A stretch of DNA of 64,000 nucleotides from an uncultured Alphaproteobacteria bacterium (lineage in GTDB: Bacteria > Pseudomonadota > Alphaproteobacteria > Rs-D84). The translations under genes and the position numbers were made by a program. Shown one piece after another: positions 3,701-50,616 of this stretch (positions are counted from its first letter, which is position 1; the number at the start of each line of letters is the position of its first letter). The notes beneath the pieces are model-generated. The model saw only the letters and a program-made list of their open reading frames with translations. It was not told where the DNA came from and searched no databases. Location: positions 2,915 to 66,914 of the forward strand of contig CALXMR010000003.1 in NCBI GenBank assembly GCA_944389525.1. Direction: 5' to 3'.

Positions 3701-3730
3701 AAAAAAACGGGGCGCGCGCCCCGTTTTTTT
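3701..3730. terminator. Bidirectional intrinsic terminator
   Basis: AAAAAAACGGGGC-GCGC-GCCCCGTTTTTTT. Confidence 0.8.
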
Positions 3731-6671: not shown

Positions 6672-8395
6672 CTAGATGATACGCCACGAGTTGTTGTGCC
6701 AAGTAAACTTGAGGTTGGTCGGCTGAGCCCCGAGGGTGGTGTTAATGTTCCCATGTTAGTTGGTAATGATGTGTCCAGATTCAACGCTGGCGCCGCCCCA
6801 CATGTGCCGCTGGCTGAATCCCAACTGCCACCGTTTTTACAAATACAATCGTCCCCAGACCACGTATTCCCCAGCGCAGTACACATTTTTTCTTGCTCAC
6901 TTAGTGGTTTTGGGCTTGTTTTAGGATTGCGTTCTATGCAACGACCACTGAAATCATCCCAAATTTGGTCGTCATCACATTCTGGATCTTTACAGATGCC
7001 GTTTTGCCAGCTGCCACCGTTGGATTCACATTCTTTTTGGCGGGCATCTTCGACTGGTCGTGATGAAGAAGTTTTTTCGGCTTCTGATTTTGCGTTTTTA
7101 TCCGTTTTGCTATCGGATTTTTCGTCTTTGGATTCCGATTTGTCACCAAAATTCTCTTCGTGTTCTTTTTTAGCGTCTTTTACGGCGTCCTCTGCCTTTT
7201 GCCGGTCAATTGCGCGGCTAATTGCTCCAGATGTAAGCGCACCTGTGGCCACACCAAGTCCAGAACCCATCAGGGCCGCAGACGCAGATGTCTGGCTGCG
7301 TGTCAAGCGATATGCGTTTTCCATAAATGTTGTGACATCAATTCCAAACCAATCAGGTGTGCAATCAAAAACGCCGCCGGCATATGCCTTTTTCGATGCG
7401 AACAGTGTGGAATCATCGCCTGCATAGAATTCAACCGTGAATACGCAATCTAGACTGCGGTCGTCCAATGTCGCGCCCAGCATGCGGCACTGTTCGCGCA
7501 TCTGATCGCGCAAGTCGTACAGACGCTGTTCATCGCGTTGGACCAAAACCTCGGCATCTTGGCGCAGGGCACCAAACACGGACATTGTGCGTGATGCCAG
7601 ACCACTGTCTTGCTGGACACAGTTATCGGCAATTGTTTTACATTTTGCAATTGCGGCGTCCCCGGCGGATTTGCCTAGGCACTTGCTGAATGTGGTGCCA
7701 CATTCGGTGATGATGCAATCGTTGTACTGGTTACCACAATCAATTACCGCATTATATGATGCCAGACGTGCATTCATGTCACGGTCGGCCTTTATCTCGG
7801 CCGCGAACAGGCGGTATTCTTCACCTGTGCACTGGGCGTCGATGTCGTTGCGGCATGCGTCCATTTTGTTGCCCCATATGGTATCTGTATCACCACGGCA
7901 ATCATAAAAATTATTCCCGCACCGTTCTGTCATACATTGGCGCAGGCCGATGTCACATGCGTTTTGACCGCTGGCCACCGATGTGGTGGCGGTGGAAATG
8001 GCGTCATCTGCATCCAGTGCCGCACGCTGGGCCGCGATTGCATCAGCCAATGCGCGGGCCGAAGTGTCAGCGGTGCTGTTTTCTGTATTAACATCTGCCA
8101 GGTATTCATCAAACTGTGACGATTTATTTTCGATAATAATTTCTTCGTCTGGTTCAGAATCTGGTTCAGTTGTTTTCGTGGTTGACGTTTGTGTTGTTGA
8201 TGGTGCCGTCATTGTTGGCATGCGCCCTGTGACATTTACGCGCGTTGATGTTGTTGGACGCGCGGATGTGCCACGCTGGACCACGGCGGCATCGGCCATC
8301 GGTGTAAACAGTGCGATTATTGCCACAAACGCGGCCAGACCAATTGTGTTGGTCTGGGTGATTTTCTGGTAAAGATTTTCAAACCGGTTTGTCAT
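6668..8395 (-). CDS. Secreted Cys-rich helical protein (novel paralogue family)
   Basis: N-terminal signal/TM segment, Thr-rich linker, Cx6Cx4CGxxFxxC modules, GSGLGVATGALTSG segment. Start chosen at MTNRF. Confidence 0.75.
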   Translation of the reverse strand: MTNRFENLYQKITQTNTIGLAAFVAIIALFTPMADAAVVQRGTSARPTTSTRVNVTGRMPTMTAPSTTQTSTTKTTEPDSEPDEEIIIENKSSQFDEYLADVNTENSTADTSARALADAIAAQRAALDADDAISTATTSVASGQNACDIGLRQCMTERCGNNFYDCRGDTDTIWGNKMDACRNDIDAQCTGEEYRLFAAEIKADRDMNARLASYNAVIDCGNQYNDCIITECGTTFSKCLGKSAGDAAIAKCKTIADNCVQQDSGLASRTMSVFGALRQDAEVLVQRDEQRLYDLRDQMREQCRMLGATLDDRSLDCVFTVEFYAGDDSTLFASKKAYAGGVFDCTPDWFGIDVTTFMENAYRLTRSQTSASAALMGSGLGVATGALTSGAISRAIDRQKAEDAVKDAKKEHEENFGDKSESKDEKSDSKTDKNAKSEAEKTSSSRPVEDARQKECESNGGSWQNGICKDPECDDDQIWDDFSGRCIERNPKTSPKPLSEQEKMCTALGNTWSGDDCICKNGGSWDSASGTCGAAPALNLDTSLPTNMGTLTPPSGLSRPTSSLLGTTTRGVSSR

Positions 8396-8414
8396 GTTTA
8401 TGTGTATCCATTCG

Positions 8415-9281
8415 TTAATCCAGTAAATCACATGCGATGTCATAGAATTCACACAGTTGGGTCGCACTGGCGCGTTCTGATTCGTATCCGTCACCGCATT
8501 TGTTTGGCATGTTGCGTTCGCACACGGTTTCAATGCATGCGTTGCGTGCCGAATCGTTTTTGCACCCGTCTTGTGCGCTGGTTAATTTCTGCGCGCGCGC
8601 CGTTTGGTAATTTTTAACAATCGTGGCCAGCATAGTGTCCGCACTTTCTATTGCAGAATCACGCGCGGCAATTAAATCTGTGCGGATATCAGATACATAG
8701 TCGTCACAGCCGGCGGCCTCTACACTGCATGCGGCGAAAAATCTGTCAAAATCTGAATCGTTTTCGCATGCGCTGTAATCCGGGCCACAGCGATTGGCCG
8801 CGACCAGACATGCGCGAATATTTGTCATGCATGTCGATTGGCTGACCGTTTGGGCGCGTTCCGACAGGGTGGTTGCCAGTTGTGCACTGACCCCCGCGGC
8901 GCGACATGATTGTTCGATTAATTCATCGTATGCGTCTGATACATCGTCCGGGGTACATCCATCGATCTTTTTAATACACTGTGCCGTTGCCCATGCATAG
9001 CGTTGGCCAGGGTCGGTTGGCGCATCTTCCAGTTCATCTTCGCTGAGTGTATAGCGGGCAGATGCCCCCAACGATAAACTGCGCATGCCGGTCTTGGTCG
9101 GTGGGGTGCCGGCACTGGATGTGCCACAATATTGACAGCGCGCCGCCGGATTAGACGATACATTTATCGCACACACAGAATCCAGGCACCGCGTCAGGTT
9201 CGCAACCGAACAGGTCGCCGCCGATGCCACCGCAGGGCACATAAATACCGCCAGTATGAAAAATATGTTTGTTGATTTCAT
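8415..9281 (-). CDS. Secreted Cys-rich helical protein (compact member of the paralogue family)
   Basis: Signal peptide, CLDSVC..RCQYC, AYDELIEQSC, CGPDYSAC. Confidence 0.75.
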   Translation of the reverse strand: MKSTNIFFILAVFMCPAVASAATCSVANLTRCLDSVCAINVSSNPAARCQYCGTSSAGTPPTKTGMRSLSLGASARYTLSEDELEDAPTDPGQRYAWATAQCIKKIDGCTPDDVSDAYDELIEQSCRAAGVSAQLATTLSERAQTVSQSTCMTNIRACLVAANRCGPDYSACENDSDFDRFFAACSVEAAGCDDYVSDIRTDLIAARDSAIESADTMLATIVKNYQTARAQKLTSAQDGCKNDSARNACIETVCERNMPNKCGDGYESERASATQLCEFYDIACDLLD

Positions 9282-29233: not shown

Positions 29234-29495
29234 GAATCCAAAGGGATTTGGATTCGGGTTCGTAAGAAAACCTTTACCAAATCGGCATATTAATATATGT
29301 CGTAATCCGCATGGGGATAGTATGCGGCGCAAAGGTTGCGCCTTTTATTATCCACAACCCCGCACAGGTCGGGGGGCCGTCAGTTATACAACAGGGACGC
29401 AAGCGGACCTGATTCAGGTTTCCCAAAGGCTGGCGGGGTCAAATTTGGTTGATTTTCTTAACCCACCCGACCGCCAAATCCGATTTGGATTGGCG
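29234..29495 (+). ncRNA. C4-antisense-like structured leader RNA with downstream complementary target sites
   Basis: Series of hairpins ending GGCGCA..TGCGCCTTTT. TAAGAAAA and ACCAAAT are complementary to ATTTGGT..TTTTCTTA at 29443-29460. GGTCGGG..CCCGACC forms a long-range stem. Confidence 0.55.
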
Positions 29496-29610
29496 GTGTT
29501 TTATAACCAGGAAATTTTTCACAATAATTTATGTTGAAAGTTTTTTTGGTTATGCTACGCTGAGAGAACAGAAGGGTATCAAATTTCAAAAACAGCAAAA
29601 GGAGAACGGT

Positions 29611-32526
29611 ATGGCGACATACAAGCATTTAACAGATTTATTAAAGATCTGTTCCGTGCTGCCTGCGTTGGCGATTATGCCCGCAATGGCAGAAGAACCA
29701 AACGTAAATATAAATAACAATAACTTGGCGCAGGACAATCGCGTATATAACGGCACAATAGCAGGCCAGCGTGCTGATAACGTACAACGTGGTGGTGCGG
29801 TAACTATTGGCTATGGTGTATCGGGTGTATCTGTGGCAGATGGCACCAGTTTCATAGGTAACAAGCATCTTGCCGCCACTGGTGGTGGTGCGATCAAGGC
29901 ACTGAATGGATTTACAATTGGTAATAATGTAACATTTGATGGCAATACCGCAGATAATAATGGGTGGGCCGGTGCACTGTATATAAAGCTGGCTGACAAG
30001 GCGAACCCTTCTGAAAATACGACTGTAAAGATTGGTGAAAACAGCGTATTTAAAAATAACAGTGGGTTGTTTGGTGGTGCAATTGGTCTGGAATATGGTA
30101 ACCTGGAAATTGCCAACGGTGCGCAGTTTATTGGAAATCATGCGAATGGTACGGCAGATACCTTTGGTGGTGGTGCAATTATCGTTTGGCAGGACCAAAA
30201 AGATCGTCCAGAACTGCATTCAACATTGAAATTGAATAACGCAACGTTTGAAGAAAACACGGCGAAGAAGTATGGTGCGGCGATTGCGGTATTTGATACA
30301 GGTGCAGAAACAACCATAAACGGTGGTTCGTTTAAGAAGAATTCAGTGGCAGAATCCGATGCAAAGAACCCAAGTGGTGGTGCGATTTATAATGTTGGCA
30401 TCATGAACATAGATGGTGTTGAGTTTAAAGAGAATAACGGAAATTACTCCGGTGGTGCGATTTACAATGCAAATAGCGGTGTTACAACGGTTAAAAATTC
30501 TCTGTTTAGTTCCAACACAGCTGCACAAGGTGGTGCGATTAATAATGCGGCCACAGCTGCGGATGAAGCCGGGGAATTAACCGTTGTTGATTCGGTGTTT
30601 GAAAATAATTATGCGTGGAATGGTGGCGCAATTAGAAACCAGGGGAAGGCAGACATACAGATAGCAAATATTGTTGGTGGTGATTTTGTCAACAATAGCT
30701 CGGCAAATGGCGGTGCTATTTGGAATGGTACTTGGGGAAAAATGACCATCTCTGGTGCCGAATTTAAAGGCAATTCGGTATCAAAGACATCCGAGGTTTA
30801 TAATACAGATAAGACGTCTGATGGTCAAGGTGGTGCGATTACTAATGCAGGTGTGTTAGAAATCACCAATGCCACATTTACTGGTAATAGTGCTGCTGGT
30901 ATTGGTGGTGCGATTGCGAATGTTACACCACAGACGAAAGACTCAGAGATAGTTTCGAAAATTGTGTTCGATACAGTTGCATTTGAAAATAATCATGCAG
31001 ATGAAAAAGGTGGTGCTATTTACAATGTCGCACGTGGTGAAATTGTTCTGAACGGTGAAAACACATTCAGTGGCAATATGGCGGGTGACGTTGCAAACGA
31101 CATCCACAATGATGGTAAATTTTCCATCGCGTCTGGCACAACAACGCTGGGTGGCGGTATTACCGGTGACGGTACACTGACCATTGAGGATGGTGCAACA
31201 CTGAATATCGGTACAACAACCGTAAAACAGTCTGAGGTTACACTGGATGGTACACTGACTGCACAAATCTTGAACCAGGGTTCGTGTGGTCGTGTCGAAA
31301 CAGGTAAGATCACCGTTGGCGATAAAGGACTGTTGAACCTGATGTTCGGATCTGTGGGTACATATAACTTTGGTGTGACAGTACCAGAAGATAAGATTGT
31401 GTATAACAATGCAATCTATGACGCCACATTCGGTGAAACAGGTGAAATCACTGTTGCAACCAAATCAGTGGAAGAAATTGCCCAGGGTACAAACCTGTCG
31501 ATGGGTGCGGCAAACGCGATCAGCATCATGGCCAACACAAAGGACGATGTGTTGAATACGATTTCGCTGATGGCGCAACAAGACCTGGTCGCGGGCAAGA
31601 CTGGCAATGCTGAAAAAGAACTGGCAAAACTGAACCCAGATGACAAGCCGGTCGCACAATCGGTCGCATCGTCTGTCCAGAACCAGGTGATGTCGCTGGC
31701 TGCGGGTCGTATGTCCGGTGCATCGGTCGGCCGCAGTGGTGGTGATTTAACATCTGCGGATTATGGCCTGTGGGTCCAGGGTCTGTACAACCATTCGAAA
31801 TATAATGGCAAGTTCAGCGGCGATACATGGGGTATTTCTGTCGGTGCAGATACACTGATTGACGGTAAATATACTCTGGGTATCGGTTATGCATACAATG
31901 ACACTGATGTCGATTCGAATTCGCGTGATACAGGTATCGAATCGAACAGCTTGTTCCTGTATGGCCAGTACAAGCCAAACGAATGGTATGTCAATGCAGC
32001 ATTGAACTATACAATGGCTAACTATGACGAATCTGCGGATCCATATGGATTCAAACGCAAGACAGAATATGATGTCGATTCGTTCGGTGGTCAAATCATG
32101 ACGGGTTATGACTTTGCAGCCGGTTTCACACCAGAAGTTGGTATGCGTTACCTGCATATCAGCCAGGATGCATATCAGAGCTGGTTGGGCGAAGTTGACG
32201 CGTTGGATACAGACTATCTGACCGGTGTCGCGGGCGTAAAGTATGCGTTCGAAATCGAATCGGCGTCTGAACTGAAATTCCGTCCGGAACTGCGTGCGGC
32301 GGCAACATATGACTTTATGTCTGATGCAGCCGTGGCAACAGTGACCGCGCCGGGTAATGTTGCATATGTCATCGATGCGGATCGTCTGTCACGGTTCGGT
32401 GGTGAATTCGGTATCGGATTGACCGCACAGTATCGTGGGCTGGATGTATCGTTGAACTATGAACTGGATCTGCACGAAGATTACACTTCACAGACCGGTA
32501 TGTTAAAGTTCAGATATGATTTCTAA
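29611..32526 (+). CDS. Autotransporter with Pmp-like GGA(I/L/V)/FxxN repeat passenger
   Basis: RBS AAGGAG, extended signal peptide, many GGAI and FxxN motifs, GRSGGD then beta-barrel ending FRYDF. Confidence 0.9.
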   Translation: MATYKHLTDLLKICSVLPALAIMPAMAEEPNVNINNNNLAQDNRVYNGTIAGQRADNVQRGGAVTIGYGVSGVSVADGTSFIGNKHLAATGGGAIKALNGFTIGNNVTFDGNTADNNGWAGALYIKLADKANPSENTTVKIGENSVFKNNSGLFGGAIGLEYGNLEIANGAQFIGNHANGTADTFGGGAIIVWQDQKDRPELHSTLKLNNATFEENTAKKYGAAIAVFDTGAETTINGGSFKKNSVAESDAKNPSGGAIYNVGIMNIDGVEFKENNGNYSGGAIYNANSGVTTVKNSLFSSNTAAQGGAINNAATAADEAGELTVVDSVFENNYAWNGGAIRNQGKADIQIANIVGGDFVNNSSANGGAIWNGTWGKMTISGAEFKGNSVSKTSEVYNTDKTSDGQGGAITNAGVLEITNATFTGNSAAGIGGAIANVTPQTKDSEIVSKIVFDTVAFENNHADEKGGAIYNVARGEIVLNGENTFSGNMAGDVANDIHNDGKFSIASGTTTLGGGITGDGTLTIEDGATLNIGTTTVKQSEVTLDGTLTAQILNQGSCGRVETGKITVGDKGLLNLMFGSVGTYNFGVTVPEDKIVYNNAIYDATFGETGEITVATKSVEEIAQGTNLSMGAANAISIMANTKDDVLNTISLMAQQDLVAGKTGNAEKELAKLNPDDKPVAQSVASSVQNQVMSLAAGRMSGASVGRSGGDLTSADYGLWVQGLYNHSKYNGKFSGDTWGISVGADTLIDGKYTLGIGYAYNDTDVDSNSRDTGIESNSLFLYGQYKPNEWYVNAALNYTMANYDESADPYGFKRKTEYDVDSFGGQIMTGYDFAAGFTPEVGMRYLHISQDAYQSWLGEVDALDTDYLTGVAGVKYAFEIESASELKFRPELRAAATYDFMSDAAVATVTAPGNVAYVIDADRLSRFGGEFGIGLTAQYRGLDVSLNYELDLHEDYTSQTGMLKFRYDF

Positions 32527-32734: not shown

Positions 32735-32845
32735 AAAATAAGGGGCAGGGAAATCACACATCGGGATTGTACAGGTGGAATACAAATTTATTGCAAGGGG
32801 TGGGGGTTTGTTTTTATGATATGCTTGTTGGAAAAGGGGATGTGT

Positions 32846-35218
32846 ATGATTTTGCGTTTTTATAATATCTGTATAACTGGGGCGATTGTAATGATGGTGG
32901 TGATGCCCGCGGCTGGGGCCGACCGAATCGTTGTTGATGCCGGCGGGGAATTTACACTGGATGCACCAAAATATACTCAATATGTTACCGAGACTGAAAA
33001 TGGGGGACTGGTTTTTAATGCCGGAACATTGGAATTAAATTCTGGGGTTGTGGTGACCGAAAATTCGGGGGTATTTGGTGGTGCAATCTGGAACCAGGGA
33101 ACAATAACGCAAAATCTGAATTCGGGGGCAGGACAGTTATCTTTTTTCAGAAATAAATCGACAAATGCCGGTGGCGCAATCTATAACAGCGAAACAGGGG
33201 TTATAAAAAGTCTGAGTCATGTTTTATTCCAAGAAAATACTGCGGCAATGGGGGGCGCAATCAATAATTCCAAGGTGAATGCCGCGGCACATGGTGGTGT
33301 TATAGAATTGATTTCTAATACCAGTTTTATTGGTAATTCTGCGGGCGCGTCCCAGGGCGGGGCGATTCGTAACCAGGGAAAAATTAACGATATTGTCGAT
33401 TCGTTGTTTATGCAAAATACGGCTGGGAATGGTGGCGCAATCAATAACGGATCGTGGGGCAGTGTTGTTAATGGTATTACAAATACACAATTCGTGAATA
33501 ATACGGCACTGGCTGGCGATTGGCAACAGGGTGGCGCAATCGTAAATGCCGGTGTGATTAATCGCATAGAAGCGTCTGAATTCAGCGGAAACCAGGCTGG
33601 AAAAAATGGGGGCGCAATCGCAAATGTTATAAATACGGCCGGAACCCAGCCTGTTATTTCATTGAAAGATGTTCAATTCTTGAATAATCGCGCGGGTGTT
33701 GCCGGGGGTGCAATTTATAACGAAGTGGGCGCTGTGGTCAATCTGGATGGTGATAATATTTTTTCAGGAAATACCGCGGGCGATGATACAAATGATATTC
33801 ATAACCTGGGCCAGGTTGTAATTAATTCTGGGGTTACAAAGTTTGGTGGCGGTATTACGGGAACAGGTGAATTGACCATAAAATCAGATGCCACAATGGA
33901 TATTGGCGCAACAACCGTGACCCAGGGGATTATAAACCTGGATGGGACGGTGTCGATGTCGGTGCTGAACGCGGATTCGTATGGACAGTTAATGGCGGAT
34001 ACATACAATATCGCCGATGGTGGCGTTGTGCGGATATCATTGGGGACGGCGGGAACATATGAACTGTTTTCGGATGGTTGGGATGGAAAACTGGAATACA
34101 ACGATTCGATGTATAATATGTCACTTGATGGTGGCCATGTGACATTCAGTACAAAATCTGTGGATGAAATCGCAGATAAAAATAATCTGACTACGGCCGC
34201 CGCCACGGTGATGGCGGGACTGGCCAATGTGGGGGATTATTCTGTGGCGGTTGCATCGTTGAACGCGCAACAGGCACTGGCCAGCGGTAATACAGAATAT
34301 ATTGAACAAGAATCAAAAAAACTGGGGGCGTATGATGTGCCAGTTGTGCAATCGGTCGCCGCGTCTGTCCAGGGCCAGGCGTTGTCACTGGCCGCGGGTC
34401 GTATGTCCGGCGCATCGGTCGGCCGCAGTGGTGGTGACGCGATTGCAACAGAATACGGTGTCTGGGGGCGCGGAATGTTTAATCATACCCAGTATTCAGA
34501 TGTATTTACCGGAAATATGCGCGGTATTGCCGTTGGAATAGATGGGCAGATAAATAAAAAATATACCGTTGGACTGGGGTATTCTTATAACAGGGCGGAT
34601 CTGGATGCCAACGCGCGGGATACAAATGTCGAAAATAATACACTGTTTGTCTATGGCCAGTATCAACCAAACAAGTGGTATATTAACGCAACAGCAAACT
34701 ATACGATGTCAAAGTATATGGATACGGCAAATGTGTTCGGAATCATGATTGAATCGGAATACGATACCACTGCGTTTGGTGGTGCCATCATGACAGGATA
34801 TGATTTTGCGTTTGGTTTGGCACCGATGGCAGGGGTCAGATATTTGCACATAGATTCTGATGAATATGATAATGGTATATTGACAATTAATGCCGATGCA
34901 ACAAATTATCTGACGGGCGTTGTTGGGGCGCAATACGATTTTGTGATTGGGTCTGATTGGACGGTTAAATTCCGCCCAGAATTGCACGCGGTGGCAACAT
35001 ATGATTTCTTGTCGGATTCGGCGTTGGCCACAGTAACAGGAATCGATTCTGTGGCATATGTTGTTGATGGGGGACGGCTGTCGCGATTTGGGGGCGAATT
35101 CGGAATCGGACTGGCGATGATGTATGATGGATGGGATATTTCTGTGAATTACGCGTTGAATTTGCACAGTGACTATACATCACAGACAGGTATGTTAAAA
35201 TTTAGATATGATTTCTGA
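32846..35218 (+). CDS. Autotransporter with Pmp-like repeat passenger (tandem paralogue)
   Basis: GGAI/FxxN repeats, GRSGGD, beta-barrel ending FRYDF. Start could be 32840 or 32846. Confidence 0.9.
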   Translation: MILRFYNICITGAIVMMVVMPAAGADRIVVDAGGEFTLDAPKYTQYVTETENGGLVFNAGTLELNSGVVVTENSGVFGGAIWNQGTITQNLNSGAGQLSFFRNKSTNAGGAIYNSETGVIKSLSHVLFQENTAAMGGAINNSKVNAAAHGGVIELISNTSFIGNSAGASQGGAIRNQGKINDIVDSLFMQNTAGNGGAINNGSWGSVVNGITNTQFVNNTALAGDWQQGGAIVNAGVINRIEASEFSGNQAGKNGGAIANVINTAGTQPVISLKDVQFLNNRAGVAGGAIYNEVGAVVNLDGDNIFSGNTAGDDTNDIHNLGQVVINSGVTKFGGGITGTGELTIKSDATMDIGATTVTQGIINLDGTVSMSVLNADSYGQLMADTYNIADGGVVRISLGTAGTYELFSDGWDGKLEYNDSMYNMSLDGGHVTFSTKSVDEIADKNNLTTAAATVMAGLANVGDYSVAVASLNAQQALASGNTEYIEQESKKLGAYDVPVVQSVAASVQGQALSLAAGRMSGASVGRSGGDAIATEYGVWGRGMFNHTQYSDVFTGNMRGIAVGIDGQINKKYTVGLGYSYNRADLDANARDTNVENNTLFVYGQYQPNKWYINATANYTMSKYMDTANVFGIMIESEYDTTAFGGAIMTGYDFAFGLAPMAGVRYLHIDSDEYDNGILTINADATNYLTGVVGAQYDFVIGSDWTVKFRPELHAVATYDFLSDSALATVTGIDSVAYVVDGGRLSRFGGEFGIGLAMMYDGWDISVNYALNLHSDYTSQTGMLKFRYDF

Positions 35219-36060: not shown

Positions 36061-38574
36061 TCAACCACTGGTGGACGGGTTTTCTGTATCAGAATCATCT
36101 TTTTCTGCGCAATATCCCCACTTTGTATTTGCCCCCGTTTCATCATAGAAGTATTTATATAAAGTACCTGTGCTGGAACCGTCAGATTTCCATTGCGTGT
36201 CAAACCATGTCCCGCCCAGCCTCTCGCATTCAGTCGACAAGACTTTTGCCATTTCTACCTTGACCGAGTCCATGACCGAATTGACATCCCCCATAACTTC
36301 TGCTGGAATTTCTATTTCCCCATTGGTAATTTTTTCTGAATCCGATGGACGAACACAAACCTGGGTTGCATAGCGTACTACTTTTTGATATAAACTGCCG
36401 GCATAATCTGGCCCACAGTCAAATTCTGGTTCTGTTATAAGCGGGGCAGATGTTCCGCCAGGGCAATTTGCATCGGCCAGCCCCGAGACTGCATCACATT
36501 TCAGACACATATTGTTAAACTTGCCGGCTGCTTCGGCACCTAAAAGAATTTTTGCGTTTCCATCCGCTGTGTTTTCATCTTTGTATGCCAGAACATATCC
36601 TTGTTTGCATTCATAATAGGCGCGTATTTTTGGTTCGCAATAGTAACCATTGCTTGTGGGATATTGTGTGTTGTCAATATTGATGTCAGATGTGTTGAAT
36701 GTCATAGACAATGCATTACATTGCCAGCGGTCAGCATATATTTGATCGCCAGGGGCGTATACACGGCATCCATATGGGTATGCGTGCAGACTGTCATTAC
36801 TGGGGACTTTGCAAGTGTCTTGGACAAAGCTTTCCAATAATGTGTGGCATTCTTTGACAATTTTTTGATCGGTGATTTCATGCATCGCTGCTATTAATAA
36901 GTCCAGACCACTGCCATTCGGGTCGCCGTACAAATTGCTGCAGGCGTACAATTTTTCCTCACATAATTCTTCGGATAATTCCAGACGCGATCCCGTCAGT
37001 AATTCTTCTTTGATATTACTAAAATCTTTCAGTGATTCATTTTGTTCATCGTAACAGGTGTTAACGACAGCCAGACATTCATTTTTGACATCGCGAATTT
37101 TTTCTTGTTGGCCCTGGTATATTTCGACAATTGCCTGGCGAACAAATTCATCCCATACCTCGTCTGCGATATCGCGACATGTTTCCAGACCGCGCGCGGC
37201 ATAAATTCGTTTGTTGTTTAATTCAGAAACAATTAAACGGTTGGTGGCGTTTGTTAAAACATCGCCATCTAATGATATCTGGTATTCCAGTTGATAAAAG
37301 TCTGGGGAATAAATCGGTTCGCCAGTATCACGATTTAAGTATCTGCCGGTTACATCCAGGCAATGAACATAGTTGGGCCCACATGCCGTTTCGGCGGTTA
37401 TGTCGGTGCGAACCTGGGCAATACAGTCATTAATTGATGTTGAATTGTGGGCATTATAATTTTCCAGACGCGCCACATTCATTTCGCGTTCGGTATCACG
37501 GATAGAACTGTTGGCCTGGACCAGTTGGGAATCCAGTGCGTTCAACAGGGTTGTGCAATCATTTTCAATATACATCCCATATGCAGATATTACCATGTTT
37601 AATGTGGATTGTGATGGGCAGTTAGATGCGATTAAATCCACACACTGTGAATGAACCGCATTGTACAATGATTCGCCGGTCAGGTTCGCGATGTTTTCAC
37701 CCGATGCTAAATTCGTTGTTGCCCATATTTGGTTTATGTCGCCCGCGATATCTAATGTCCCCAGTGTTGATAACGCCTGGGATTTAGTGGAAGACAAAAC
37801 CGCGCTGATGCCGGCCAATGTTTGTGCCGATTGTGAATCGTCTTCGGTTATGGCCAGTTCACCTTCGCTGGCGGATAGCATGGCATTAACCTCGGTCGCG
37901 GTTTTGGGGATAACTTCGATATTTAAATTTTTAAAGTCGGTTAACTGATCGGCGGTTTGCCCCAGTGCGCGTTCACGATTTTGGACATCGGTCAGACGTG
38001 ATGAACATATGCAACGGCGATAAGAATCATTCATGGTCGCACAAAACTGATCCATACATGTAAAGTATGCATCACGACAAATGTTATATTCTGTGCCGAA
38101 TGTGTTTGTGACAGATGCCGGTGCAACGGTTGTGGCGCGTGGTGAACGTGCCACGCGCGCAGATGACACAGATTGGCGTGGGGCCGCACTGCGAACAACC
38201 GACTTGTTTGTGGTACCCCGTGATTTTGTGGTATTCCCCGTTATGCCGGTGCGCGACGATGTGATTGCATTCGCACTGCGGGCAGATGTCGGGGGGGCAG
38301 ATGTAGACGTGTTGGTTGCATTGTGTGCAGATATTCCACTGCGTGCAACGGTTGTGCGCGCGTTGCGCGATGATGATGTATCAGATTGCGAAATAGATGT
38401 TCGGTTTGATGATACGCTGCGTACAGGTGGGGTGGTTGTGCCACGTGAAACCACGGATGTGGTATTAGTGCTACCAGACTGATTTCGGGATATGGATTTT
38501 GAATCACGAACAGCAGCATCGGCATGCATGATGCCAATGCAACACATCAGTGTAAAAAGTAAAATCCTTTTCAT
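36061..38574 (-). CDS. Secreted Cys-rich helical protein (novel paralogue family) with S/T/R-rich linker
   Basis: Signal peptide; CRDAYFTCMDQFC..RCICS; GESLY..C; CGPNYVHC. Confidence 0.8.
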   Translation of the reverse strand: MKRILLFTLMCCIGIMHADAAVRDSKSISRNQSGSTNTTSVVSRGTTTPPVRSVSSNRTSISQSDTSSSRNARTTVARSGISAHNATNTSTSAPPTSARSANAITSSRTGITGNTTKSRGTTNKSVVRSAAPRQSVSSARVARSPRATTVAPASVTNTFGTEYNICRDAYFTCMDQFCATMNDSYRRCICSSRLTDVQNRERALGQTADQLTDFKNLNIEVIPKTATEVNAMLSASEGELAITEDDSQSAQTLAGISAVLSSTKSQALSTLGTLDIAGDINQIWATTNLASGENIANLTGESLYNAVHSQCVDLIASNCPSQSTLNMVISAYGMYIENDCTTLLNALDSQLVQANSSIRDTEREMNVARLENYNAHNSTSINDCIAQVRTDITAETACGPNYVHCLDVTGRYLNRDTGEPIYSPDFYQLEYQISLDGDVLTNATNRLIVSELNNKRIYAARGLETCRDIADEVWDEFVRQAIVEIYQGQQEKIRDVKNECLAVVNTCYDEQNESLKDFSNIKEELLTGSRLELSEELCEEKLYACSNLYGDPNGSGLDLLIAAMHEITDQKIVKECHTLLESFVQDTCKVPSNDSLHAYPYGCRVYAPGDQIYADRWQCNALSMTFNTSDINIDNTQYPTSNGYYCEPKIRAYYECKQGYVLAYKDENTADGNAKILLGAEAAGKFNNMCLKCDAVSGLADANCPGGTSAPLITEPEFDCGPDYAGSLYQKVVRYATQVCVRPSDSEKITNGEIEIPAEVMGDVNSVMDSVKVEMAKVLSTECERLGGTWFDTQWKSDGSSTGTLYKYFYDETGANTKWGYCAEKDDSDTENPSTSG

Positions 38575-38683
38575 TCCTTTATATATGTAGAATGATAACA
38601 AAAATATATTTTTATGGAAAGCGATTATTTGTTCACATGTTTATTTTTTTTCCAAGAAAAAATCCCGCAATGGCGGGACCTTT

Positions 38684-38935
38684 TTATTTCGTGTTTTGTT
38701 CGGTGGTACTTGGGCGATTTCGTTCAACAAATGTTATGCGGCCCTTGTCCAAATCGTACGGTGTCATTTCAACGCGAACATGTTCACCAACATTGACCCA
38801 TATGCGCAACTTGCGCATTTTGCCACATACCGTTGCCAAAATTTCGTGCCCATTTTCCAGTCTTACCCGGAACATAGTATTGGGTAATTTGTCTTCTACG
38901 ACACCAGAAAAAACAATCACATCGTCTTTTGCCAT
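38684..38935 (-). CDS. infA: Translation initiation factor IF-1
   Basis: [38 protein letters not shown]. Confidence 0.96.
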
Positions 38936-39076
38936 TATTATCCTCTGTATTTACTGCGAAAAAATTCTAGGCTAATGATATTATTTTGTAAAATGTAAAG
39001 CAAGTTGTTTTTATGTGCTTGCACATGTTGGTGGGTTTTGATAGAATTATAGGTAAATATATGTAGGGTGGGCGTT

Positions 39077-41224
39077 ATGAAATTACATGTTGTTTTAGCA
39101 ATATTGATGTCGTTACCAATGACTGCCATGGCAGTCAGTCGGGATGGTGCGGTGGTACGTGTTGGCGCCAGTCGCGCAAACCAGGTTGGGGCCCGTATGC
39201 CCAGTATGGTCGCGGGTACAACCCAAATGGTGGTAAACACACCAACAACGGTAAATCCTACATTGTCAACAAACCCCAGTGGTGCTGGAACGTCGGGTGG
39301 TGGATCAGATGCGGGTGGCGACAGTGGTGGCGCGACAACATCGGAAAGTTGTCGTGATGCGTATCGTGCATGTATGGATGAATTTTGTTTGCTGGATGAA
39401 TCCGAAGGGTACAGATGTGCATGTTCGTCTAATATAGAGCAATCAAAATCATTGATTCAGGAAATCCAAGAAATCCAAGAAAAAGCGGATCTGTTATATA
39501 CCGAAGGGGTGGAACGCGAACAATTGGGGGCCCAGGCAAAATTAGTCTTTGGCGAGAGTGAGGCCGCGCAAAAAAGTTCGCGTATATCTGGTATTAGTTT
39601 TTCAGCTTGGATAAACAGTGATTCTAGTGATGTAGATGCTGGTTTGGGGGCCGATGCAGATATTGGTGATGGTTTGTATGCAATGGCGGCGGAATTTTGT
39701 GCCAACCGTCTGGATGCGTGTGGTGATGATGCCGAAATGGAAGAAATGCTGTATGCACGTCAAATTGTTCAGGATTGTAAATCTTATGAAACATATTTAA
39801 AAGATCAAAAATCAATTGCGGAATCTAATAAACGCACGGCCGAGGCTGCGGTACGCCAGGCGCGTTTGCAAATGTTGGACACGACAAACAAATATAATCG
39901 TGGCGAATGTTTGTTGGCGTATCGTTCGTGTATCGCGGACAAGGGTGGTTGCGGCGTAAATTTTGAAAACTGTTTGGATGCTGATTTGTTGCAACGCCGC
40001 GCAAATGCGTGCGAAAATGTTCTGGACCAGTGTATGGCGGTGCGTGAATATGTTCTGGCTGACTGGGCCGAAGAATCAGAAAGTATTTTGGCCGAAGCGG
40101 CCAAATATGCCGACAGAAATGCGCGTGCAACGTGTCTGGCGCGGATTCAGTTGTGTCTGGAAGACAGTTGTTCTACGGAAACAAATTCGGCATGCTTGAC
40201 CGATGTTAATGTTGCGGCGGGAATTTGTCCGGTTATTACAGAATGCGAAGAAATGATTCCAGGTATTCAGGCTGTTGTAAATGACAAGTTGGGATATTTG
40301 CGGACACAGTTTTGTCAGAATGATGTCGATGCCTGTTTGCGCGACAGATGTGGTGAAAACTTTACCGCGCCGGAATGTCTTGGTAAAAGTGCGCTGGAAA
40401 TAGCGGCCATGTGTCCCCAGAGTATGTTCCCATCGTGCAAAACCGAAACACAATTTGATATTATTGTCCAGGCGGCCATGCTGCAAATGGATTATCAAAT
40501 GTTACAGGGATGCCTGAACTATTTCGGTGAAAGATTGGGTGCGGTTTGCGGAACGGATATGTCGTGTTTGCCCACGGATACATTGACCGCATCATTGGTT
40601 GAAATCCCCGAAGACCAGGCGGAGCTGGCGACATTGCGTGAAACGGTTCGTGCAAATACAGAAAATGCGGTTAATGAATTCTTTGAACAGTTTGAGCAGG
40701 ATAAAACCGTTGCCGCATGTCAGGACAGTCAAAAGCCATCTGATCGTGAAAGTCTGGGTGATAGTGTGTTTAACACTGCAAAGATGATTGCACAAATCGG
40801 GGCGGAAAATCGTGCCATGCGCGAACTGGAAACCAAGATTGCAGAATTATCACGCCAGCAAGATCTGGAAGAGGCAGAACAAAACTGTTATAACACATAC
40901 CAGGTTGAAACCCCAGACGAATCCAGCAAGAATTATAGTTATATCCGCAGTGTGTCATGGGAGCCGTCATTGCGTAACTGCCATGTGTGCCGCATGCAAC
41001 AGGTGTGCGAAACAGGTGGCCAGTCCAAGGGTGCGGCCGGTGTCCAGGGCTTGGCCGGTGGTTTGTCGGCGGGGGCCGCGGCTGGTACCATGGTAACCCC
41101 GGGTTGGGGTACTGCGATTGGTGCGGTCGTCGGCGGAATTGGCGGATTCATTGCGGGCCAGTCCGCGGGCGGTGAAGAGGAATTCTGTCAGGAAATTGAA
41201 TCTTGCGAAGATATTAATATGTAA
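39077..41224 (+). CDS. Secreted Cys-rich helical protein (novel family) with C-terminal glycine zipper
   Basis: Signal peptide; CRDAYRACMDEFC..RCACS; CGVNFENC; GLAGGLSAGAAAG..GTAIGAVVGGIGG; ends CEDINM. Confidence 0.8.
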   Translation: MKLHVVLAILMSLPMTAMAVSRDGAVVRVGASRANQVGARMPSMVAGTTQMVVNTPTTVNPTLSTNPSGAGTSGGGSDAGGDSGGATTSESCRDAYRACMDEFCLLDESEGYRCACSSNIEQSKSLIQEIQEIQEKADLLYTEGVEREQLGAQAKLVFGESEAAQKSSRISGISFSAWINSDSSDVDAGLGADADIGDGLYAMAAEFCANRLDACGDDAEMEEMLYARQIVQDCKSYETYLKDQKSIAESNKRTAEAAVRQARLQMLDTTNKYNRGECLLAYRSCIADKGGCGVNFENCLDADLLQRRANACENVLDQCMAVREYVLADWAEESESILAEAAKYADRNARATCLARIQLCLEDSCSTETNSACLTDVNVAAGICPVITECEEMIPGIQAVVNDKLGYLRTQFCQNDVDACLRDRCGENFTAPECLGKSALEIAAMCPQSMFPSCKTETQFDIIVQAAMLQMDYQMLQGCLNYFGERLGAVCGTDMSCLPTDTLTASLVEIPEDQAELATLRETVRANTENAVNEFFEQFEQDKTVAACQDSQKPSDRESLGDSVFNTAKMIAQIGAENRAMRELETKIAELSRQQDLEEAEQNCYNTYQVETPDESSKNYSYIRSVSWEPSLRNCHVCRMQQVCETGGQSKGAAGVQGLAGGLSAGAAAGTMVTPGWGTAIGAVVGGIGGFIAGQSAGGEEEFCQEIESCEDINM

Positions 41225-41261
41225 ACCTGGGGACAGTGGCATATTGACACAGGGGGAGGGG

Positions 41262-43817
41262 ATGAAATATAAACTGATTTTTGGAACAGTCGTTTGTGGG
41301 GTCGCGTTGATTGCGGCGGCGGATTTGTACGGCGCGGCCAGCACCAAACGCCAGTCTGCAATTCAACAGGGAACAACCGTTCGTACGAAAATAGAAGCGG
41401 CCGGACTGTACGACCAGGCGTGTTATGATGCGTACTTTGGTTGTATGGATCAGTTTTGTATAACTGATAACGCCAGTGGTGGGGCATGCACATGCAGTGA
41501 TAATATTGCCGAATATGACAAAGAGTATGATGCAATCCAAGATATCTTGGCACAGGCGAATATTTTGCGTACCGAAGAAGTGGAACGGGTCAAGGCTGGC
41601 GCGGATGCGGATATTATATTCACAGGTGAACGCCGTTATGATGCAGATGGAAATATCTTGGATGAAGGTGAATTAACGGAAGAAGAAGAAAAAGAACAGC
41701 GGCGTGCAAGTTTGCTGGCCATGTTTAACACCAGTATTTATGATGACGATGATGAACTGGAATCGTCTGTTACCAGTATGGCGGATATGATGGGTGACGA
41801 ATTATATCAGGCGGCCGACGAAATGTGCACTAACCAAATTCCTGATTCGTGTTCAGAAGATTTAGCATTCTTGCGTCAGTTATACACCCGGCAAATAACG
41901 TCCGACTGTTTGGGTTATAAAAACTCTCTGGCTCAGCAACGCGCCACTGCCGAAGCGGATCTGGCCGCGGCTGAATCCGAAGTGCGTGCGGCACTGCAAG
42001 AAAGTTTGGAAAGCGCGAATAAGTATGATTTAGGTCAGTGCATGGTCGAATTTAGAAAATGTATGCAGACCACTGACGCGTGTGGTGAAAATTGGGAAAA
42101 TTGTGTTGCGACAATCGCGTCAGAAAATATGCAAAATAATGTTGCGGTCAGTACGGCGGGAACAACCGCGGAATCTGTGGATACATATGACATAACTGCG
42201 TCAACAATGGAAATCTTGAATAGCAAGAGACCGATTTGTGAAAACATTTTGGATCAGTGTGTTGCGGTGCGGGACCAGGTGTGGCCAAATTTCCTGCGCG
42301 AGGCGGCGCCAACAATTCGTGTCGCAGAATCCCAGGCGGAATCAAAATTCCGGCAGTCGTGTTTGGGGGATATTTCTGATTGTATTCAGACCGCGTGTCG
42401 TGATGATATCGCCGGCAAAGGGGTCGCAACAATGGATGCCTGTTTGGCACGGCCCGATATGGCGCGCAGTTTTTGCAAGGTCGAAATCGATCCGTGCGAA
42501 AGAATGGAACCACAAATTTGGGACTATGTCGTAGACAAGTTGGCGGCAATGCGTGTTGATGCATGTACCCAAGAAGTCAAAGATTGCTTTACCGCGGATA
42601 CACGCTGTGGGCCGAATTTTGAAAACTGTATCGGTATGGATTATGACTATATCCACGATATTTGTCCGATTGACACATTGGTTGTTTGTAAACAGGATAA
42701 TCCTAATTTCTCGATGGATGATCTGGACAGCATGTTAATGGGCCTGTATTTGAATATCGATAACGCAATGATGACCCAGTGTCAAAATCTGGTTGATACA
42801 AAGATGGCAGAAATTTGTGGCAGTACATCTGATTGTAATCGTTTCGCAGCAGATGATACAATTGGTACAGGATCTGTGCGTAGCCAAAAGGATGGTGATG
42901 TCTATCGTGTAACGGGAATGATTTCGTTTGGCAGTATTAAGATGGGCAGTGCGTCTGGGACCGATCGTACAATCGACAGCGAAGGCAAGACGGTAACATT
43001 GGCACCTGGTGAAATTGGGGTCGAAGAGTATTTGGCCAAGATACGTGAAAATAATGCGTCTGTTCCGAACGCAGAAGCGATTATTTCTTCGATAGAAGAA
43101 GAATTGAATAATATCGCTGGTACGATTAATCGCACAATAGAAATGATAGAAAGTGACCCAGAAATTCAATATTGTGTTACTGGGCGCAGTCTGGAACAAA
43201 TTACCGGTGAAAAAGGGGCGTCAACCGAAGGGCGGTTCCCGAATCTGTTGAACCAGGTTAAAATGCAAATCGCGGTGGCGGCATTGCGCCAGGCTCAGGA
43301 TAATTATAATAATAAGTTAAACCAGGCTATTGCCGATGCAACAAAGGATGCATCAGCCGATTTGGCACAGTATATGTGTCAAATGTTGCCAGTTACAGGT
43401 GGAGCTGTTCTGGGGGGCTTGGATGTAGATACGCCTTTGACGGCACCGTATGCAATCAGTTACGATGTTGGAACTGGTTTGGATAATACTTTGTTGGCCC
43501 AAGGTGGCCGAGGTGGTGGTGCGGTTAGTGGTAATGCAACCATGGATACGACTGCGGGAACCAGTCAGGCTGCTGAAATCATAAATTCGTTTACTGGTTT
43601 GGGTTCAAATCGTGTCAAGATAGATTTGCCCAGTGGTACGCGTGAAATGTGGTCTTTGTTTAATCGGGAAACACGTACATGCCATTATTGTACGTCTACG
43701 ATTACAAAATCATGTGAATCAATCAGTAAAAAAGGATTCTTGGGCATTGGGGCAAAAAACGAATTGAAATGTACAGAATCCGAGCCTGTGGAAAAGTGTG
43801 AAGATATTGTGATGTAG
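41262..43817 (+). CDS. Secreted Cys-rich helical protein (novel family)
   Basis: RBS GGAGG; signal peptide; CYDAYFGCMDQFC..ACTCS; CGENWENC; ends CEDIVM. Confidence 0.8.
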   Translation: MKYKLIFGTVVCGVALIAAADLYGAASTKRQSAIQQGTTVRTKIEAAGLYDQACYDAYFGCMDQFCITDNASGGACTCSDNIAEYDKEYDAIQDILAQANILRTEEVERVKAGADADIIFTGERRYDADGNILDEGELTEEEEKEQRRASLLAMFNTSIYDDDDELESSVTSMADMMGDELYQAADEMCTNQIPDSCSEDLAFLRQLYTRQITSDCLGYKNSLAQQRATAEADLAAAESEVRAALQESLESANKYDLGQCMVEFRKCMQTTDACGENWENCVATIASENMQNNVAVSTAGTTAESVDTYDITASTMEILNSKRPICENILDQCVAVRDQVWPNFLREAAPTIRVAESQAESKFRQSCLGDISDCIQTACRDDIAGKGVATMDACLARPDMARSFCKVEIDPCERMEPQIWDYVVDKLAAMRVDACTQEVKDCFTADTRCGPNFENCIGMDYDYIHDICPIDTLVVCKQDNPNFSMDDLDSMLMGLYLNIDNAMMTQCQNLVDTKMAEICGSTSDCNRFAADDTIGTGSVRSQKDGDVYRVTGMISFGSIKMGSASGTDRTIDSEGKTVTLAPGEIGVEEYLAKIRENNASVPNAEAIISSIEEELNNIAGTINRTIEMIESDPEIQYCVTGRSLEQITGEKGASTEGRFPNLLNQVKMQIAVAALRQAQDNYNNKLNQAIADATKDASADLAQYMCQMLPVTGGAVLGGLDVDTPLTAPYAISYDVGTGLDNTLLAQGGRGGGAVSGNATMDTTAGTSQAAEIINSFTGLGSNRVKIDLPSGTREMWSLFNRETRTCHYCTSTITKSCESISKKGFLGIGAKNELKCTESEPVEKCEDIVM

Positions 43818-43924
43818 TATATAAAACCCACGTAATGTGGGTTTTTTGTTAAAAATAAATTCCTAGACAATTTATTAAATAAATGTGATATTATATAAAG
43901 GCAAACGAACAAAAGGGGTAATGT

Positions 43925-49782: not shown

Positions 49783-50616
49783 TTATTCCGCTTCGTCCAG
49801 TGCAGATTCAATTTGATCCGCCGGGATTGCGCCAGGGAATGCCTGTTCGCCGATAATCAAGAACGGTGTGCCGCTGATTTCAAAGCGCTGTGCCAGGTCA
49901 CGCACATTTCTTAATTCACGCGCAACAACTTCGCCGTTCATGTCTTCTTTCAGTTTGTCTGTATCCAGACCAACTTCTTTGGCCATTTTCATAACGTTTG
50001 CTTCGACTTTATCGGCCAATGTTGATTGATCTTGCAAATCTTTGGAAGAATAGAATTCGCGGGTCATCAACATGTTGGTCAGTTCTGCTGCCTTTTCTTT
50101 GTCTTGCAGATTCGCTGCAATAACAGCCTTGGCCGGTGCATCAGACAATGGACCGTGGATAGAGAAGTTCTTTATCACGACACGGGTGTCGTCACGATCT
50201 GCTAATACGCGTTCCAATTCACCGTGTACGCGGCGGCAATATGGGCAAGAGAAGTCAGTCCAGACATAAATTGTCTTTTTCGCATCGCGATTACCCAAAA
50301 CTGGTGCATCACGCATCATCTGTTTACCTTCGGAACGAACATATTTACGAATTTGTTTGTTCTTTTCGGCCTGTTGCTGTTCTTGCATACCGTTGACCAT
50401 TTCTTGAACGATTAACGGATTTACCGCCGTCAAGTAATATGGCATATACAGGCGGCACACACTGCCCGTAATCAGGATGATGGCAATCAGGTTAATACAT
50501 TTGCCCATCACAATATTCCCAGCCGATGGTTTTTTATTGTCTGTTTTTGGCAGTAACATGCCACCAAACAAGAACAACAGAATACCAACAACCAGTACCA
50601 AGATTGTCCAAGTCAT
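49783..50616 (-). CDS. Membrane-anchored DsbA-family (Com1-like) thiol:disulfide oxidoreductase
   Basis: Two N-terminal TM segments, DFSCPYC, GTP cis-Pro loop. Confidence 0.88.
   Translation of the reverse strand: MTWTILVLVVGILLFLFGGMLLPKTDNKKPSAGNIVMGKCINLIAIILITGSVCRLYMPYYLTAVNPLIVQEMVNGMQEQQQAEKNKQIRKYVRSEGKQMMRDAPVLGNRDAKKTIYVWTDFSCPYCRRVHGELERVLADRDDTRVVIKNFSIHGPLSDAPAKAVIAANLQDKEKAAELTNMLMTREFYSSKDLQDQSTLADKVEANVMKMAKEVGLDTDKLKEDMNGEVVARELRNVRDLAQRFEISGTPFLIIGEQAFPGAIPADQIESALDEAE

Follow-up and report, generated by a model that had tools for sequence, protein, structure and literature searches.

Two adjacent genes of an uncultured alphaproteobacterium, here called A and B, are the subject of this work. 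They lie in a 64,000-nt stretch of DNA (the window; assembly GCA_944389525.1, contig CALXMR010000003.1) on contig 3 of a genome of 0.92 Mb that is 97% complete. The two encoded proteins end in the same cysteine frame, and we propose that this frame forms a shared module, an antiparallel β ribbon stapled by disulfides, at whose end A would carry a glycine-zipper hairpin serving as a membrane anchor and B an exposed, variable contact loop. This is the explanation that we favour, tentatively and at somewhat less than an even chance. A and B probably belong to a family of Candidatus Enterousia envelope proteins that has so far not been described and whose members are exported by Sec, rich in disulfides and for the most part helical (a close B orthologue, P0364, carries the NCBI label Candidatus Enterousia intestinigallinarum). 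No published description of the family was found in the literature on Enterousia, Rs-D84 or glycine zippers, some of which was available as titles and abstracts, and the word "cysteine" is absent from the main text, as far as it was available, of one Enterousia paper. This work adds a disulfide map, a predicted ribbon-and-tip geometry, a comparison showing that one tip is conserved and the other is not, and a switch that exchanges the B tail by DNA inversion in relatives.

The common C-terminal frame of A and B

Gene A (39077-41224, plus strand) encodes 715 amino acids (aa) counted from the ATG at 39077, with a GTG at 39068 as an alternative start. Gene B (41262-43817, same strand) encodes 851 aa and is a paralogue of A (30% identity over 477 aa, E 3e-59). 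As the initial annotation had pointed out, both proteins end in C-x2-C-x5/7-C-[tip]-C-x5/8-C-E-D-I-x-M. The spacing is C635-x2-C638-x5-C644, 59 residues, C704-x5-C710-EDINM in A, and C807-x2-C810-x7-C818, 18 residues, C837-x8-C846-EDIVM in B. The annotation had the five cysteines and the CEDI-x-M end right but overlooked one more cysteine upstream (C604 in A, C706 in B), which brings each tail to six; they are numbered C0 (the upstream one) to C5 below. The A tail module (40886-41221, plus strand; residues 604-715) runs from C604 through the predicted strands 620-629 and 634-647 and the zipper hairpin to the last strand and CEDINM. The B tail module (43380-43814, plus strand; residues 707-851), the part exchanged in sister species, consists of a low-complexity linker and a predicted disulfide-laddered β ribbon.

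Profiles of the two tails align in hhalign at a probability of 84% (E 7.6e-6, 29 columns). The resemblance goes beyond chance, since this match is joined by the paralogy of the genes, the invariant cysteines and the conservation of the frame. None of the 22 aligned B orthologues departs from the five tail cysteines, C706 or the final Met. All 120 close A orthologues, whose tails are 85-100% identical, have the A frame and a 59-residue insert with two or more GxxxGxxxG motifs, and at least 90% of the 32 rows of the A alignment retain the terminal Met. The acidic-I/V-x-M end and the terminal Met are the tail features most widely retained in A and B together. Matches to B occur in 18/18 same-genus genomes, and its tail was detected in 118 of the 121 genus genomes surveyed. 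Of the 17 genus genomes fetched, 16 have A adjoining B on one stretch, and the other (G012) has the two on separate contigs. The frame is kept by 16/17 of the fetched genus A genes, including that of G018, which ends in -INV plus 13 extra residues. The A orthologue of G008 (L009, G008:C24) has an internal TAG, which may be an assembly error in this fragmented genome or real decay.

The family has about ten members in the source genome and 516 representatives at E≤0.001 in a 50%-clustered library; the tail frame is carried by three of the roughly ten. Searches of whole A and whole B against Pfam and NCBIfam found no family (for A, none at E 0.1), and sequence-profile searches of the PDB with the A1 and A2 alignments gave 0 matches at E≤1. 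The third carrier is a paralogue fragment on contig C12 of the source genome (2744 nt), with CHKC...C, the tip TKNPLFGSKY and the end ...C...CNDTQF. That contig holds the convergent C-terminal parts of two B-like paralogues (minus strand 1517-2743 and plus strand 2-1459), the other of which has a Ser/Asn-rich end without the cysteine frame. A distant family member, P0207 (973 aa), ends in ...C-x5-C-QDIPM after an insert of about 90 residues that is rich in Ala, Gly, Ser and Val and hydrophobic, so there is room at the tip position for a membrane-like insert of far greater length.

Disulfide map and export

Both proteins have a signal peptide, that of A being the Sec signal MKLHVVLAILMSLPMTAMA|VS with cleavage at AMA|VS. 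All 36 cysteines of A lie in the mature chain; B has 37, one of them in the signal peptide, and thus also 36 in the mature chain. Cysteine losses were followed in an alignment of 40 A-type tails, namely that of the window, those of 15 loci and those of 24 distant representatives. All six cysteines are present in 23 tails, and C1-C5 are present in three more in which C0 falls outside the trimmed alignment. C2 and C5 are both absent in ten tails, one of a near relative (P0144) as well as distant ones, and C3 and C4 are both absent in four. No tail has a half-lost pair: all 14 losses are paired with the other pair retained, although related tails share some of them and the independent events number fewer than 14. 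The residue numbers of the same pairs add up to matching sums (638+710 = 644+704 = 1348 in A; 810+846 = 1656 and 818+837 = 1655 in B), which fits C2-C5 and C3-C4 as cross-strand partners of an antiparallel hairpin. C0 and C1 are invariant wherever they are aligned, and since neither ever varies they are paired with each other by elimination. As judged from covariation, there are thus two nested disulfides, C2-C5 (C638-C710 in A) and C3-C4 (C644-C704), and, by elimination, a putative third, C0-C1 (C604-C635).

A membrane-anchored DsbA-like thiol oxidase (Thioredoxin_4, active site CPYC) is encoded 6 kb downstream at 49783-50616 on the minus strand and is the sole disulfide-forming enzyme found in the genome. 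The clamping of the loops by disulfides, which the initial annotation had supposed, is therefore borne out by the paired losses, the equal spacing across the hairpin, the Sec signal peptide and the DsbA-like gene in the window.

Predicted structure of the tails

AlphaFold2 (AF2) models were made for A from the 32-row alignment and for B from 22 rows; both proteins are predicted to be mostly helical. The A model has a helical cysteine-rich body and tail strands at 620-629, 634-647 and 701-714, with helices 651-673 and 677-697 between the last two strands. The mean predicted local distance difference test score (pLDDT) per ten-residue block is 72-84 over residues 611-640 and 56-77 over the last strand. 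In B a disordered linker (714-782) precedes tail strands 783-789, 792-801 and 806-823, the loop 824-831, and strands 832-839 and 843-850. Both tips are thus predicted to form the far end of an antiparallel stapled ribbon, exposed rather than buried, as a membrane-contacting loop of the kind initially suggested would have to be.

Fold searches gave no sign of the fusion-loop or pore-hairpin fold that had also been suggested. With the full-length models, Foldseek returned nothing at E≤0.001 for A against the PDB or for B against the PDB and BFVD, and its weak rows of 70-100 residues on leviviral coat proteins (E >1) are probably due to a plain β meander. A wide VIA search with whole A gave generic helical matches only (best Z 8.1), and the match of the zipper hairpin to a helical hairpin of the TIM23 complex (Z 6.2 over 52 residues) is within noise. 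A predicted complex of A 590-715 with B 695-851 (score 0.00, mark 0.32) speaks neither for nor against binding.

A conserved tip in A and a variable tip in B

The A tip (41027-41167, plus strand; residues 651-697) is a glycine zipper of 47 residues inside the 59-residue C644-C704 insert. Its first helix (651-673) has glycines at 658, 662, 666 and 670 and its second (678-697) at 678, 682, 686, 690 and 694, with a TPGW turn between them. Tandem GxxxGxxxG repeats are thus found on two adjacent helices of a hairpin, the helices themselves being AF2 predictions of low pLDDT, and the earlier description of this loop as a glycine-zipper hairpin holds in all 120 close orthologues. Identity among 15 genus sequences is 73% and 64% in the two tip helices, 82% and 78% in the ribbon strands and 65.5% over the whole protein. 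The zipper also occurs in family f4 of the order (L027), and it survives in distant relatives that have lost one disulfide clamp. On the Kyte-Doolittle scale the helices score 1.03 and 1.33, below the 1.91 of the signal peptide. Matches of the zipper to Gly-zipper_Omp, Gly-zipper_YMGG and Bacteriocin_IIc are weak and stay under threshold.

The B tip is the loop KKGFLGIGAK (43728-43757, plus strand; residues 823-832), between predicted strands 806-823 and 832-839. Across 17 genus orthologues B is 61% identical overall, 68% in the core, 35% in the linker, 41% in the tail strands and 22.7% in the loop, the tail being the least conserved part of the protein. The 17 loops fall into at least six types: KKGFLGIG (6 genomes), N/SWFR (4 genomes), SWFHN (3 genomes), Y(H/S)WNRNDRD (2 genomes), and VLFFDNRK and SYVWGLVDTRK (1 genome each). 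Nine B-type loops were scored; their net charge ranges from 0 to +8 and is positive in seven, and none of the nine is without an aromatic residue. Conservation of the loops, which the initial annotation would have expected in both proteins, is therefore found for the A tip but not for the B loop.

Inversion of the B tail in sister species

In genome G017, B ends in a WFH tail and is followed, tail to tail, by a silent copy of its last third (241 residues) with a GFLGIG tail. One 373-nt arm of an inverted repeat falls within B (residues 615-739) and the other within the copy, the two being 99% complementary, and the 708 nt between the arms hold both alternative ends, with about 80 nt between the two tails; the invertible segment spans 4338-5791 of locus L011 (G017:C2:52600-58600). 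A contig of genome G099 (L029, G099:C10, 1-1849; 1849 nt) likewise holds two convergent alternative tails, flanked at both contig ends by perfect repeats of at least 141 nt that stop exactly after the C0 codon. Between the G099 tails lies an open reading frame (ORF) of 125 aa with a hydrophobic N-terminal stretch and many cysteines (L029 900-1277, plus strand); no such ORF is present in the G017 segment.

Of 237 near-full-length B orthologues among public proteins, 123 have the WFH loop and 114 the GFLGIG loop. When these are grouped at ≥99.5% identity over the first 700 residues, both tails occur within three of the nine multi-member groups (WFH/GFLGIG 49/39, 48/16 and 3/1). P0004 and P0376, for example, are identical through residue 711 (...AQYMCQ) and wholly different afterwards. 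Both joined forms therefore exist in natural populations of these relatives, and a loop that is swapped by DNA inversion in sister species does not fit the conserved fusion loop for which the B tip had been taken. No recombinase-like ORF was seen among the translations within 9 kb downstream in G017 (gene A lies upstream; the rest of that genome was not searched). Homologous recombination is favoured as the cause of the inversion because the inverted arms are long and coding. Among the 121 genus genomes a second copy of the B tail was found in G017 and G099 only; five others with B near a contig end (G038, G031, G056, G079 and G076) have one tail each.

Genes around A and B

The A-B spacer (41225-41261, plus strand) is 37 nt long, has a strong ribosome-binding site ahead of the B ATG (GGGGGAGGGG) and shows no terminator-like site. 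Just 3' of the B stop, a hairpin followed by a T-run (43823-43849, plus strand) reads by eye as an intrinsic terminator, a site that the pattern scan for terminators did not list. A and B probably share one transcript. Contigs of one RNA-library run cover the 5' part of B and the next gene, which encodes a BOF-fold protein; these are no proof of transcription.

Upstream of A, infA (38684-38935, minus strand; IF-1, named by eye from its translation) stands alone between gene A and a further family member, C (36061-38601, minus strand), which flanks it on the other side. Two large paralogues that are 48% identical over 749 aa (29449-32526 and 32816-35218, both plus strand) lie just upstream of the cysteine-rich cluster; they have GGAI-type repeats and a β-barrel-like C-terminal stretch and look by eye like autotransporters of the Pmp type. 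Further cysteine-rich exported proteins are encoded on the minus strand at 3729-6671 (K, 47 Cys), which ends in an OmpA-type peptidoglycan-binding domain, and at 6668-8533 (L, 26 Cys). Zipper-like hydrophobic segments are seen at 523-541 and 670-688 of K and at 420-438 of L, and such segments may be a common anchoring device of the envelope proteins of this organism.

Discussion

In the explanation that we favour, the shared module would be an antiparallel β ribbon that C0-C1 ties to the long helix preceding it and that the nested disulfides C2-C5 and C3-C4 staple like the rungs of a ladder, ending in C-E-D-I-x-Met-COOH. It would act as a rigid stalk presenting whatever sits between C3 and C4. 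In A the two-helix zipper hairpin would embed in a membrane as an anchor. Because its helices are only weakly hydrophobic, it would be expected to pass the Sec channel without halting there and to insert after export, into a leaflet facing the periplasm and most likely that of the outer membrane. The short basic and hydrophobic loop of B would be a contact or recognition tip that binds a lipid or lipopolysaccharide (LPS) surface peripherally, or a partner; LPS is made, as LpxC in the genome indicates. We read the B tip as an exposed contact site because it is fast-evolving and, in relatives, phase-variable, a pattern typical of such sites. Phase-variable tails usually mark exposure on the cell surface, which is possible for B, since a secretin and TolC-like proteins are encoded in the genome. 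The insertion of A, the membrane it would enter and the contact made by B are inferred.

Several findings weigh against this proposal. The models are least certain where they matter most for the anchor, with pLDDT block means of 43-60 over residues 641-690 of A and values <50 over 665-682, and the B model is mediocre (mean pLDDT 61.6). There is no lipobox in A (no Cys at AMA|VS), unlike the known zipper anchors, and it is missing from most signal peptides of A orthologues too. The A tail scores 16.4 bits against PF13488 (cut-off 25) and 14.0 against PF13441 (cut-off 28.9), and genome scans with PF05433 and PF13488 (E≤1) found two genuine zipper proteins above cut-off and did not match A. Neither DsbB nor VKOR, which could re-oxidise DsbA in this anaerobe, was detected in the genome (97% complete); to our knowledge, the published genomes of this order lack a respiratory chain. 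The A gene of G012 (L016, G012:C58) is out of frame from the zipper onward, although this genome too is fragmented and the lesion may be an assembly error or real decay. The source genome itself (G000) has a single B tail (1 match) and no cassette, and in contigs of three DNA runs B leads on to the next gene with no alternative junction and with no joint or loose end near codons 706-711, where a rare form could escape contigs. Finally, a phase-variable tail would usually imply surface exposure, yet no route by which A or B might cross the outer membrane is apparent.

The closest counterparts of the A tip are SlyB/Pcp, YfgH and the Rickettsia 17-kDa antigen (PF05433, PF13488 and PF13441), which share with it about 45 residues in two adjacent GxxxG helices with a tight turn, moderate hydrophobicity, and a place in exported envelope proteins of Gram-negative bacteria. 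SlyB and YfgH are described, in titles and abstracts, as glycine-zipper outer-membrane lipoproteins. A differs in having no lipobox, in scoring below the family cut-offs, in the C-terminal position of its zipper between two strands of a ribbon that appears disulfide-laddered, and in its carrier, a 715-aa cysteine-rich helical protein of no known family. Even so, the A zipper seems better explained as a SlyB/Pcp-type anchor than as a fusion loop.

Class II viral fusion loops are held by disulfides, and Limulus anti-LPS factor has a disulfide-clamped basic and aromatic loop that binds lipid A. The B loop, short and of Gly, aromatic and basic residues, would resemble them if it sits, as modelled, at the tip of a disulfide-stabilised β-hairpin. 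It differs from them in the lack of a fold match to viral proteins or solved structures, in its unconserved sequence, and in its carrier, a bacterial Sec-exported helical protein. The A tip is conserved, but it is a 47-residue helical hairpin rather than a loop of the class II kind.

The exchange of the B tail recalls the phage Mu G segment, the R64 pilV shufflon and Campylobacter fetus sap, in which invertible 3' ends switch surface or receptor-binding proteins. As in those systems, a constant 5' part is joined in relatives to either of two 3' ends that long inverted repeats enclose in a tail-to-tail arrangement, and both joined forms are common in public assemblies. Unlike in them, no invertase was found in the 9 kb downstream of B (G017), its arms are long coding repeats (373 nt and ≥141 nt), the part swapped is a small stapled ribbon and not a fibre tip or pilin, and the genome of the window has no cassette. 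Chlamydial OmcB and OmcA are, like A and B, large exported proteins with 4-5% Cys from a small-genome Gram-negative bacterium, beside Pmp-like autotransporters. A and B have no sequence or profile similarity to them and are predicted to be mostly helical, and, in the part of PMC12306168 that was available, an Enterousia-type organism is reported to keep the rod-shape and peptidoglycan transpeptidase genes RodA, MreB and MrdA.

Among the alternatives, the one that survives best, though it is unlikely, is that A and B are the two components of a tip that enters a foreign membrane, that of a partner or host, with B docking and A penetrating to give a pore or lipid mixing. The pairing of A and B in a probable operon is retained throughout the genus, the models place each tip at the far end of a stiff, stapled ribbon, glycine zippers are known from pore formers (and the A zipper has its weak Bacteriocin_IIc match), and switching of the B tail fits a changing target. 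The genomes are of about 0.9 Mb, and standard uptake transporters are reported missing from Enterousia-type bacteria in the available part of PMC12306168; dependence on partner cells is plausible for these two reasons. What speaks against a two-component tip is that neither protein resembles a fusion or pore-forming fold, that nothing indicates that A or B leaves the cell, that the B loop is unconserved, unlike fusion loops, and that the hydrophobicity of the A zipper does not exceed that of envelope-lipoprotein anchors.

Slightly less probable again is the idea that the shared tail serves chiefly as a signal for sorting or docking, its stapled ribbon and carboxyl end being recognised in export, assembly or quality control (for instance by a secretin pathway or a PDZ protease), with the tips secondary. 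The wide retention of the terminal Met and acidic-I/V-x-M (22/22 B rows, at least 90% of the 32 A rows) agrees with it, as do the encoded secretin and the C12 paralogue, which shares the frame but ends in NDTQF. A tail found on three of roughly ten members is hence not a family-wide export signal, and the strong conservation of the A zipper would be left unexplained.

We give about one chance in ten to a contact apparatus of an obligately partner-dependent bacterium, in which the stapled ribbon would serve as a rigid probe, the phase-variable B tip would select a surface and the A hairpin would enter the foreign membrane there to open a conduit or merge lipids. If true, bacteria would have a disulfide-laddered equivalent of a fusion or pore hairpin, with its recognition half reprogrammed by DNA inversion.

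It is very improbable that A acts as a glycine-zipper toxin that depolarises membranes, as Cdz, VacA and ionophoric CDI toxins do, and that the B tails are polymorphic effector ends with orphan cassettes. The weak Bacteriocin_IIc match, the silent displaced C-terminal cassettes, which resemble orphan toxin modules, and the small cysteine-rich ORF inside the G099 invertible segment would suit a toxin. The A tail, however, is nearly monomorphic (85-100% identical in 120/120 matches), and A and B look like syntenic core genes (B in 118/121 genomes, A beside B in 16/17). In the window no immunity-like gene was found after A or B, where the BOF-fold protein comes next; the two G017 tails are only about 80 nt apart, and the B tail is modelled as a bare β ribbon without an enzymatic or pore domain.

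A zinc knuckle or ribbon in place of disulfides, to which CHxC...C-x5-C with a His beside the first pair bears some likeness, is hardly credible for exported proteins with 36 mature-chain cysteines each, in which C2/C5 or C3/C4 have gone as pairs, the rest being kept, in 14 of the 40 tails (14/14 of the loss cases), a pattern that a four-ligand site would not tolerate.

Conclusions

Farm animals and people commonly carry Candidatus Enterousia and other members of its order in the gut. No isolate was found described in the available part of the literature on Candidatus Enterousia. The largest gene family of these bacteria consists of unnamed cysteine-rich exported proteins with no solved relative. 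A stapled tail that presents a putative membrane anchor in A and a variable loop in B would give the first structural handle on two members of this family, as a three-disulfide module. A tail switched by inversion is the usual mark of a surface part that is attacked by phages or immunity or that chooses a partner. The variable tail of B, switched by inversion in natural populations of relatives, is therefore the obvious place to seek what these bacteria may attach to.

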